This document shows, piece after piece, positions 1 through 5,169 of a DNA stretch of 64,000 nucleotides. The stretch is from contig JAHPZH010000002.1 in NCBI GenBank assembly GCA_019058315.1, positions 1 to 64,000 of the forward strand, in the 5' to 3' direction. The position numbers and the translations under genes were made by a program. Every line of letters begins with the position of its first letter. Within the stretch, counting starts at the first letter, position 1. The DNA is from Candidatus Helarchaeota archaeon (GTDB lineage: Archaea; Asgardarchaeota; Lokiarchaeia; Helarchaeales; RDOG01). The notes beneath the pieces are model-generated. The model was not told the origin of the DNA. It saw only the letters and a program-made list of their open reading frames with translations, and searched no databases.

Positions 1-388
1 GCCACGGCAGGTCAGTATGCCCCGAATCCCCCGGGCTACACGCGGGCTGCAATGATGGGTACAATGAGTTGCGATCTTGAAAGGGAAAGCTAATCTCGAA
101 AGCCCACCGTAGTTGGGATCGTGGGCTGTAACTCGCCCACGTGAACATGGAATCCCTAGTAATCGCGTGTCACCATCGCGCGGTGAATACGTCCCTGCTC
201 CTTGCACACACCGCCCGTCGCTGCACAAGCGGTCAAGGGTGTAAAGATTTTCCCCTTCCCGCTGCAGAACTGAATTTGCTTTGGGCGAGGCCCCGTCGTT
301 GATTCGGCGGGTTCGAACCTGAGGTAGGTAAGGGGGCAGAAGTCGTAACAAGGTAGCCGTAGGGGAACCTGCGGCTGGATCACCTCCT
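1..388 (+). rRNA. rrs: 16S rRNA, 3' portion (5' part lies outside the window), interrupted by a 43-nt intron
   Basis: Universal motifs GCACACACCGCCCGTC (204-219), AAGTCGTAACAAGGTAGCCGTAGGGGAACCTGCGGCTGGATCACCTCCT (ends 388); archaeal-type GTCCCTGCTCCTTGCAC. Confidence 0.98.
227..269 (+). other. Archaeal BHB-type intron (ORF-less hairpin, 43 nt) in 16S rRNA helix 44
   Basis: UCG(218-220)/UGA(271-273) exon helix; CUGC(221-224)/GCAG(264-267) 4-bp central helix; 3-nt bulges ACA(225-227) and AAC(268-270); intron stems AGCGG/CCGCU and AAGGG/CCCUU. Cleavage after the 2nd bulge nt restores GCUGCAC|CUGAA. Confidence 0.88.
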
Positions 389-447
389 AAGAAAGCTGGG
401 GATGACTCCAGCTGGGGGTCGTCTATTCTGGAGATGTTAGTTTGAGC
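351..447 (+). repeat. Direct repeat copy 1: 16S helix 45, anti-SD and 3' trailer
   Basis: Matches 5074-5169 with 5 substitutions and a 1-nt indel. Confidence 0.95.
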
Positions 448-642
448 GTATTATACTATTTTTTTAATTCTTTATCTTTTTTGAATCATTATTTCAAATA
501 GATCCTAGCATTCATCGATTTTATTTTGTTATATATATTAGAAAATGACAAAATGCGCAAATTAGGGAGGGGAGGAATCAAAAGATAAAAATATTAGAAT
601 TGCCATAAACATATTAGAATCATAAGGGATGTATAACAAGGA

Positions 643-804
643 TTGTTGAAAAATCTTGATAAATTAACAGATAAGGAGAAGATGAGAAGACTCATCATAA
701 TATCTAAGAGAAGTGAAGGAAAAGATTTTCTCCCACATATCATAAGTCGGAATTTTAAAGATATTCCAGTCGATTTTATCTCTGAAATGTTAAAATGGGA
801 TTGA
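643..804 (+). pseudogene. Remnant of a helical-repeat protein related to 1445..4189
   Basis: Translates ...LIIISKRSEGKDFLPHIISRNFKDIPVDFISEMLKWD*, like repeat LVKLSKNVKGSKILARALSKSFEKVPTYFRNELIR; in-frame TAA just upstream at 634. Confidence 0.45.
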
Positions 805-1055
805 ACTCAAACATATTCTATTTTTTTCCTAAAAAATACTTGAATATATTAAAAAAAGAAGTAAATCCATTCCTCAAATAAACACCAGAGTAATATAAAT
901 AATAAAATGAGTCACTTAAATGATTCTTCATCTGTTTTATTCTTGGTATTAATCGAATTTTCAATTAAAAATTCAGTTGAATTATAATCAACCATTATAA
1001 ACCAAAAGGTATACTTTTTCCATTGGAAAAAGTAAAAATGAGAATGATTTAAAAA

Positions 1056-4189: not shown

Positions 4190-4302
4190 AAATTTTAGAA
4201 AAAATTTTTAAAAATACAGCAAATGATAAAGTGACTATAATCTAATACATTCAGGTATTTAGGAACTTGACTAATTTATCGAACTAATACCCAAGAATTA
4301 AT

Positions 4303-5028
4303 TCACAATATTCTGAAAATTAATTCTACAATAAAAGAAAATACTAATAATGAATAGTATTCTGAGTTATACCATTTTGAATAATCTAATCTCCCATAAA
4401 TTGGCAAATTTTTATGTTTGGGACCTGTCTTGTCACTTTTTATAATAATATCTCTATAATCCTTATAAATTGGGAAATTTTCATTTGAATTAATCGGCTT
4501 TTTCTCAAAATACAACCGCATTTTTTCATCAAATGAAATTAATCCAATCGGTAAATGTTGTATTAACTTTTTAATACCATCAGTTAATCCAATCTTTTGT
4601 ATTACTAAATAAGATTCATCAAGATATTGGAGGTATAATAGAGCTTGACCAATTCCGTTGTAAAAATTTTTATCAACTGCTCTACTATCATCCATATGTT
4701 TTTTTTGCAACACTTTCACTTTCTTACTCGTTCCATTGGTATCAATGATGGATGGGGAACCTTCTAATCTTTTGATCTCATATCCAATTAATTTAATGCT
4801 TCCATCTGATCTGGGTTGGAATTCTAATACATCAATGTCAGGGTAAAAACTTCTTTTTGCCTTTCTTGGAAGGTTAAAACTTTTTACAAGTTCAAATATT
4901 ACTGAGTTTTTATTAAGAGAAAGTATTTTTCCGATAAACCTTTGACGAATCTCATCTTCACTGTCAAATATTTTTAAATCTTTAAGCGTTCTTTTTTTCA
5001 ATTCATCGCGATCCATAATTATTGGCAT
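4303..5028 (-). CDS. PD-(D/E)xK restriction-endonuclease-like nuclease
   Basis: SEDEIR...PDIDVL...GYEIK...GIGQALLY motif order typical of the fold. Confidence 0.75.
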   Translation of the reverse strand: MPIIMDRDELKKRTLKDLKIFDSEDEIRQRFIGKILSLNKNSVIFELVKSFNLPRKAKRSFYPDIDVLEFQPRSDGSIKLIGYEIKRLEGSPSIIDTNGTSKKVKVLQKKHMDDSRAVDKNFYNGIGQALLYLQYLDESYLVIQKIGLTDGIKKLIQHLPIGLISFDEKMRLYFEKKPINSNENFPIYKDYRDIIIKSDKTGPKHKNLPIYGRLDYSKWYNSEYYSLLVFSFIVELIFRIL

Positions 5029-5073
5029 AAATCTTCCCTGTATATTAATTAATTCTTCAAAAAAGTTTTATGT

Positions 5074-5169
5074 AGGTAGCCGTAGGGGAACCTGCGGTTG
5101 GATCACCTCCTAAGAAAGCTGGGATGACTCCAGCTGGGGATCTTCTATTCTGGAGATGTTGATTTGAGC
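5074..5169 (+). repeat. Direct repeat copy 2: displaced, diverged 16S 3' end and trailer (attR-like)
   Basis: AGGTAGCCGTAGGGGAACCTGCGGTTGGATCACCTCCTAAGAAAGCTGGGATGACTCCAGCTG... in an otherwise AT-rich intergenic region. Confidence 0.95.

Follow-up and report, generated by a model that had tools for sequence, protein, structure and literature searches.

In fungal mitochondria, endonuclease open reading frames (ORFs) sit between duplicated 3' ends of genes (PMC3630166), and in SAR11 the rRNA genes that flank the region HVR2 have been proposed to mediate homologous exchange that spreads island variants (PMC2217521). Here we describe an archaeal locus that shares features with both: a 4.6-kb block of accessory genes, termed the islet, directly behind the 16S rRNA gene of a Candidatus Helarchaeota archaeon (Asgardarchaeota; assembly GCA_019058315.1), bounded by two copies of the tail of that gene and of the trailer that follows it. 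The stretch analyzed, referred to as the window, comprises 64,000 nucleotides at the start of contig C5 (JAHPZH010000002.1); the host genome amounts to 5.79 Mb in 12 contigs with a GC content of ~30%. Our account is built on the geometry of the repeat, the functional status of its two copies (A next to the gene, B at the far border), the lack of recombinase genes and the recurrence of the layout with other cargo in other Asgard genomes. We favor, with a probability of about 50%, the explanation that the islet is a cassette captured by homology-driven recombination via the conserved 16S tail and trailer, possibly aided by a nuclease.

Two copies of the 16S rRNA tail and trailer

The window opens with the 3' portion of an archaeal 16S rRNA gene, at positions 1-388 of the forward strand (Rfam model positions 1135-1478), and the 16S ends at 388. 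This is the single 16S gene of the genome. Contig C5 begins within it, the 5' part being located at C12:899-1 on the reverse strand, with a gap of ~260 nt (~892-1150 of a relative's 16S) separating the ends of the two contigs. The 23S gene is unlinked to the 16S gene, 105 kb away.

A segment of ~97 bp starting just before helix 45 (h45) recurs behind the islet, as the initial annotation of the window had stated. Alignment of 351/352-447 with 5074-5169 gave 94% identity, with five substitutions, one 1-base indel and an abrupt left border, and a looser blastn search lengthened the match to 351-470 vs 5074-5193 at 89% identity. The repeat comprises the last 38 nt of the 16S rRNA (351-388, containing the nucleotides just before h45, h45 itself and the anti-Shine-Dalgarno sequence) and ~59-80 nt of the trailer. 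Considering that BLAST and nhmmer searches of the whole genome yielded exactly these two copies (E values of 1e-35 and 1e-31), the repeat is not due to chance. Short direct repeats, defined as 70-400 nt in length, at least 88% identical and 1-10 kb apart, are scarce in this genome, with four loci in 2.39 Mb, one of which spans exactly the 16S tail. The features of the locus are collected in Table 1.

Table 1. Repeat copies, trailer elements and genes of the islet, in window positions
Feature	Positions	Strand	Remarks
Repeat copy A	351-447	+	16S tail 351-388 and trailer 389-447; weaker similarity continues via a T-rich stretch to ~470
Trailer hairpin AGCUGG-loop-CCAGCU	394-413	+	Directly after the 16S end; its loop contains the sole A/B indel
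3' strand of the pre-16S processing stem	414-450	+	Pairs with the leader on C12
AT-rich non-coding stretch	448-1055		Marginal, stop-interrupted similarity to the 914-aa protein at ~607-768
Histone-fold gene, 77 aa	1056-1289	-	Pfam CBFD_NFYB_HMF
914-aa helical-repeat protein gene	1445-4189	+	HEAT-family by homologues
PD-(D/E)xK-fold nuclease candidate, 241 aa	4303-5028	-	Motif PDIDV...YEIK; start codon 45 bp from copy B
Repeat copy B	5074-5169	+	Orphan 16S tail and trailer; upstream sequence is not rRNA

The order of the locus was compared with independent contigs. Run X1, which probably represents the source sample, yielded a 17.6-kb Logan contig that matches 360-6000 without any difference; therefore the succession of trailer A, cargo, copy B and downstream sequence is no artefact of the assembler that produced the metagenome-assembled genome (MAG). 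As is expected of a metagenome graph, the Logan contig stops within the conserved tail, at 360; for the connection between tail A and the 16S body we thus rely on the MAG contig and on the complementarity between leader and trailer.

In archaea, leader and trailer usually pair to form the processing stem of pre-16S rRNA. The 16S leader on C12 forms with trailer A a helix of ~35 bp, interrupted by bulges of 2 nt on the leader strand and 3 nt on the trailer strand, and it is at the base of this helix that the repeat ends on its right side. The cofold energy with the leader was -66.1 kcal/mol for trailer A and -50.3 kcal/mol for trailer B, in which two changes break the leader pairing (A-C and U-C mismatches) and an AG-to-GA swap preserves it. 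Within h45, C375 of copy A corresponds to T5098 of copy B, turning the closing pair from G-C into G-U; the initial observation that pairing is kept is thus correct. The 16S tail of copy A equals the consensus of the class and is identical to the tails of relatives. Apart from copy B, no tail with the G000-type motif in 161 same-class genomes has a T at this site; the one further T in those genomes belongs to a divergent tail (G249:C263). Because copy A pairs with the leader and copy B carries a unique h45 change together with stem mismatches, copy A is the functional 16S end and copy B is a non-functional orphan marking the far border.

Since copy A holds the full 16S end and the whole 3' strand of the stem, the islet sits behind a complete pre-16S unit, i.e. 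the 16S rRNA and its trailer up to the stem base, and outside the gene itself. The geometry resembles that of attL and attR sites, as had been recognized at the outset, and copy A completes the 16S. Two companion claims need correction: the islet does not lie inside the 16S gene, and the view that an incoming element restored the gene and displaced its old 3' end is not supported, since it is copy A that matches relatives and leader and the distal copy B that is aberrant. We also considered copy B as the relic of a second full 16S gene, which is unlikely given that upstream of its abrupt border lies the 5' region of the nuclease gene, with no similarity to rRNA.

Two further observations concern the body of the 16S gene. 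In the helix 44 (h44) region, ~110 nt (218-330) are skipped by other 16S contigs of the same metagenomes, which join 219/220 to 330; the extra nucleotides represent a lineage-specific expansion or an intron, an earlier reading of the sequence having suggested a bulge-helix-bulge intron. The 16S matches of two genomes of the same class (G028 and G227) likewise show a break, at model position 828/829, where an insertion or intron may be sited.

Cargo of the islet and its candidate nuclease

The islet contains three accessory genes in both orientations, with a GC content equal to that of the genome. The initial list of its cargo stands for the histone, the 914-aa repeat protein and the PD-(D/E)xK fold; the remnant of a second solenoid gene does not stand as firmly, as the similarity at ~607-768 is merely marginal (tblastn E 0.036, 27% identity over 55 aa, one stop). 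The histone has eight further matches in the genome at 38-58% identity. Its N-terminus bears a basic, Ser-rich extension of 20 aa (MPKKRYSSSRIYIPKSPTRSV), and its best paralogues in the genome are just 57-58% identical. The N-terminal domain of the 914-aa protein (~300 aa) has five paralogues in the genome at 46-61% identity, and its homologues outside the genome are HEAT-repeat proteins from MAGs of Helarchaeota and Promethearchaeota, names that by themselves point to a Helarchaeales-like Asgard host. Pfam and PADLOC gave no match for the 914-aa protein, nor did the Protein Atlas for its N-terminal domain.

The 241-aa protein encoded next to copy B has no paralogue in the genome. A word-based protein search returned only the protein itself; a full HMMER search identified nine distant homologues, in which the PDIDV motif and the Lys of (E/Q)xK are invariant. 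Its alignment-based model reached a pLDDT of 69.5, and the single-sequence AlphaFold model a pLDDT of 33. The top VIA-align matches of the model were all PD-(D/E)xK nucleases, with Z scores of 9.7 for PaqCI (rmsd 3.3, 131 residues aligned), 9.5 for the XisH-like 2okf, 8.7 for Can2 and 8.0 for NucS. Foldseek against the PDB listed the same kind of nuclease with weak matches (best E 0.0096), and the Protein Atlas gave Mrr_cat and PDDEXK_18 as weak leads (scores of 0.84-0.85). Pfam and PADLOC had no match for the protein, and a search of the PDB with the family profile gave no meaningful one. The predicted structure thus supports a PD-(D/E)xK fold, and we treat the protein as a nuclease candidate.

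The gene for one of the homologues, P0008, is closely packed between argG and argH of an operon for arginine biosynthesis (locus L037, 6001-6654); the same operon contains a gene for an Mrr_N protein between argJ and argB. Free-standing homing endonucleases are often wedged between genes in this way, and the placement of P0008 looks like that of such a selfish endonuclease. Orphan PD-(D/E)xK genes are also common cargo of the defence type.

All ORFs of the islet are accounted for, and there is no integrase or transposase among them, in agreement with the initial annotation. A split integrase of the SSV type, extending across the repeat, was considered and rejected, as no ORF traverses either copy, save for spurious frames in the 16S. 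The genome contains two matches to the tyrosine recombinase family PF00589, one at C5:822 kb and one on C7, none of them near the islet, and zero matches to the serine recombinase family PF00239.

The same layout in other genomes and elsewhere in this one

The initial annotation had proposed to look in other genomes for orphan 3' ends of the 16S gene close to rrs and to compare the 16S flanks of relatives. The search was positive: a duplicated 16S tail with unrelated cargo is present in seven other Asgard genomes (G003, G335, G336, G122, G051, G044 and G055). The comparison of flanks gave alternative cargo in G003 and no second copy in G001, and no empty site was found. In G003, which belongs to the same order and another family, a second copy with two substitutions lies 4.8 kb behind the 16S gene; it begins in h44 and is cut off by the contig end. 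The cargo encodes Schlafen/AlbA_2, Alba and DUF5678 proteins and a 254-aa membrane protein with no Pfam match, together with a partial copy of the gene for the latter. In G001, the closest relative and a member of the same family, the 16S gene is intact and is followed by different genes, with no second tail in the following 6.8 kb.

More elaborate arrangements are found in other genomes. In G335 and G336, VapBC and Doc toxin-antitoxin pairs are surrounded by arrays of at least 4-5 units, each composed of a 16S tail and ~125 nt of trailer; one of these units does not differ at all from the genuine 16S end, which lies on a different contig. In G122, one tail copy is followed by four trailer-only copies between small ORFs, and in G051 two further tail copies surround SIR2-STAND and HEPN genes. 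An ORF of the LAGLIDADG type ends at the spare tail in G044; in G055 a giant leucine-rich repeat (LRR) protein is encoded before the tail copy and a LAGLIDADG ORF after it. No recombinase gene was found on any array-bearing contig or in or near any locus examined, and PF00589 has zero matches in G335 (97% complete) and G051 (95% complete), both of which bear tail copies. Several 16S tails in G167 and G168 turned out to belong to full extra 16S genes and are not orphans. Exact-pattern scans for the trailer gave 0 matches in metagenome_contigs and genome_contigs, and full-text literature searches found no paper on rRNA-tail repeats bounding cassettes in archaea.

The left borders of the orphan copies differ between genomes. 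Expressed as the equivalent window positions, they fall at ~296 in G003, 340 in G051, 346 in G336 and in the first two repeats of G335 (r1 and r2), 351 in the window, 353 in the third repeat of G335 (r3), 359 in G044 and 366 in G122, a spread of up to ~70 nt. Such variation fits independent founding events, based on homology or illegitimate, better than a single core site of a recombinase. The hairpins of the repeats show compensatory changes between copies, with the structure kept, as expected if each copy came from the working trailer of a different lineage.

Insertions of another kind accompany some of these tails. In G051 (L030, G051:C23), the h45 loop region contains an insertion of ~35 nt (GGAAATACATGAGTAGAAACTTATGTATCGCAAGTGGATCACC), which is copied unchanged into the orphan tail (~18430-18465 and 3914-3950). 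In the closed genome of G044 (L027, G044:C1:448500-455500), an insertion of 166 nt lies just before h45 (2381-2548), and the 16S match is fragmented further upstream too, suggesting several rRNA introns.

Within the window, the layout in which cargo separates a gene from a copy of its own 3' end also occurs at two protein-coding genes. A direct repeat of 121 bp, 92% identical, surrounds an alpha/beta-hydrolase gene (8672-9466, reverse strand): of its two copies, that at 8526-8646 is a fragment, and that at 9644-9764 forms the 3' end of a gene for an 89-aa ferredoxin-like protein with two Cys clusters (9656-9925, reverse strand). The ferredoxin-like gene follows a putative gene for a 558-aa oxidoreductase of the FAD type, both assignments being read from the sequences. 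A second direct repeat, of 56 bp and 86% identity, links the 3' end of a gene on the reverse strand (36683-37792; copy at 36683-36738) with a copy 2.7 kb along that strand, past two genes (33964-34019). The latter could be a decayed tandem copy, as three neighboring genes for proteins of 368-371 aa may be paralogues. Farther along the contig, at C5:682631-686545 (L059), a segmental duplication of ~900 nt brackets a gene for a 468-aa protein; the duplicated part comprises a 98-aa ORF and the C-terminal half of a 286-aa LRR-like protein, with 86% amino-acid identity.

Origin of the islet and comparison with known systems

Four explanations can be weighed against these data. In the one that we favor, an accessory cassette would lodge directly behind the complete pre-16S unit, and the 16S tail and trailer would act as the crossover sequence for homology-dependent entry, with no need for a site-specific integrase. 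Entry may proceed by a single crossover with a circular DNA carrying one tail/trailer copy and the cargo, or by a double crossover in which the left arm would be the 16S body and the right arm the orphan tail copy. The PD-(D/E)xK nuclease of the cassette may raise the frequency of entry by cutting unoccupied sites; equally, it could be plain cargo. This reading is interpretive as to how recombination proceeded, in which direction the transfer went and whether the nuclease has a role. Homology-driven insertion at the most conserved 16S segment had been one of the options named initially, and it is the one that fits best. The other option, an rRNA-targeting element with its own machinery, is not supported in view of the differing left borders, the two arrayed genomes that have no detectable tyrosine recombinase and the presence of the layout at protein-coding genes as well.

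A serious rival, although we consider it rather unlikely, is a local rearrangement with no mobility involved, in which the tail and trailer were copied beside the rRNA gene through template switching or segmental duplication, the cargo is resident, and copy B is a decaying scar. The cargo has the GC content of the genome, the histone and 914-aa families are multicopy in it, partial gene duplications bracket genes nearby (8526-8646/9644-9764 and 33964-34019/36683-36738), the G003 islet too holds a partial gene duplicate, and no sign of excision or empty site was found, contigs being the only material searched. What such a process would have to explain is why tail and trailer are duplicated in no fewer than seven further Asgard genomes, around unrelated cargo and in some cases as multi-unit arrays: independent random duplications would need to strike the same 40-150 nt repeatedly, in a genome where such short direct repeats are rare. 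Alternatively, the islet could have arisen by nuclease-driven homing of the mobile-ORF (mORF) type, in which the 241-aa nuclease cuts an unoccupied 16S-trailer site and repair imports the nuclease gene, the cargo and a copy of the 3' end. The position of a gene for a protein with this fold and an intact PD...ExK motif next to copy B, the LAGLIDADG ORFs adjoining tail copies in G044 and G055, the placement of P0008 between argG and argH, and a layout like that of fungal mitochondrial mORFs, in which the endonuclease ORF is followed by the C-terminal duplication (PMC3630166), all speak for it. The polarity, however, is reversed: the copy contiguous with the gene looks native here and is foreign and divergent in mORFs. 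A target within the 16S tail would be self-cleaved, because the tail of copy A is identical to the tails of relatives; moreover, five of the eight examples (G003, G051, G122, G335 and G336) have no nuclease by the copies, homologues of the nuclease show no association with 16S tails, and orphan genes of this nuclease class are common as defence-type cargo. On balance, homing appears improbable.

Still less probable in our view is site-specific recombination in trans, in the manner of integrons or tRNA islands, in which the structured trailer would be recognized by an enzyme whose gene lies elsewhere or whose family is new. It would account for direct repeats that reconstitute the gene end as attL and attR do, for the arrays of small cassettes in G122 and G335, each ending in a structured repeat, and for hairpins that retain their structure despite sequence change, as in integron attC sites. 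Against this stand the failure to find a tyrosine or serine recombinase in or near the loci examined, the lack of PF00589 in G335 and G051 and of PF00239 in the genome of the window, and the variable left borders; the covariation in the hairpins is equally explained by descent from working trailers.

Several observations weigh against capture by homologous recombination itself. The insertion is deduced and not directly seen, as no empty site, excised circle or alternative junction was observed and G001 has no synteny with the window downstream of the 16S gene; Logan contigs, which drop rare variants, show no joint skipping 448-5073 and no circle junction. The copies diverge by 6%, so the event must be old. 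The native base composition and the multicopy histone and 914-aa families mean that a purely internal rearrangement could have produced the islet, and since two protein-coding genes of the window show the same layout, the process need not be specific to rRNA. The layout is also sporadic: of 20 16S loci picked solely by the length of their contigs, one has it, and among the 161 genomes of the class no other pair of tails was found on the same contig (the G003 copy ends short of the motif). At the loci of nuclease homologues that were examined, none of the homologues lies beside a 16S tail.

If homology-driven capture is nevertheless correct, it may extend beyond this genome. Tentatively, and with considerable doubt, the Asgard 16S tail and trailer may be regarded as a general platform for gene capture without an integrase, in which a spare tail would serve as a portable homology arm that lets host recombination, sometimes triggered by an endonuclease, carry a cassette into the rRNA flank of related cells. 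The ends of rRNA genes would then join the ends of tRNA genes and integrons as sites where archaea collect and exchange accessory genes, here with no dedicated integrase, and the most conserved sequence of the cell would be a shared landing pad. It would also provide a route for the flow of genes, such as defence genes, toxin-antitoxin pairs and a tailed histone, in the lineage closest to eukaryotes. In practical terms, assemblies break at the rRNA gene because of spare 16S tails, which can also misguide binning and annotation based on 16S. The presence of a nuclease gene at the border of this islet makes the question of nuclease involvement directly testable.

The islet and the integrative elements at tRNA and tmRNA genes have in common that the 3' end of a conserved RNA gene is rebuilt by a direct repeat and that the enclosed cargo is of the accessory or defence type; the tandem accretion known for such elements has its counterpart in the several units in a row of other Asgard genomes. 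The islet differs in its target, an rRNA tail with its processing trailer, and in the native look of the copy contiguous with the gene. As there is no integrase in or near the islet and the insertions have no common core, the Asgard repeat borders being variable, the model of an integrase-driven element fails. Integron or attC arrays lacking an integrase are approached by G122 and G335, with their rows of one- and two-gene cassettes that end in a structured repeat, and not by the window, which has a single islet with genes in both orientations; no IntI was found, there is no PF00589 match near the locus, and what is repeated is the tail and trailer of the host's own 16S gene.

The mORFs of Allomyces (atp6) and Glomus (atp6, atp9, cox2 and nad3) have the same order of gene, 3'-end copy, endonuclease ORF and second 3'-end copy (PMC3630166). 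Both systems would be integrase-free and driven by repair, with an endonuclease gene, here a candidate by its fold, between the duplicated 3' ends. In the islet, the target is a non-coding rRNA tail on an archaeal chromosome, the nuclease is of the PD-(D/E)xK type instead of LAGLIDADG or GIY-YIG, and there is extra cargo (the histone and the 914-aa protein). In mORFs the displaced copy is native and the copy contiguous with the gene is imported; because copy A looks native, homing of this type fails on the polarity of divergence. In SAR11 HVR2, as in the islet, a variable accessory block is bounded by rRNA sequence, formed in our case by the 16S body with its tail to the left and by orphan tail B to the right, and the site holds different cargo in relatives at the level of the order (G003) and the family (G001). 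HVR2 lies between two different intact rRNA genes with no duplicated gene end, whereas the right-hand arm of the islet is a spare copy of the same 16S tail.

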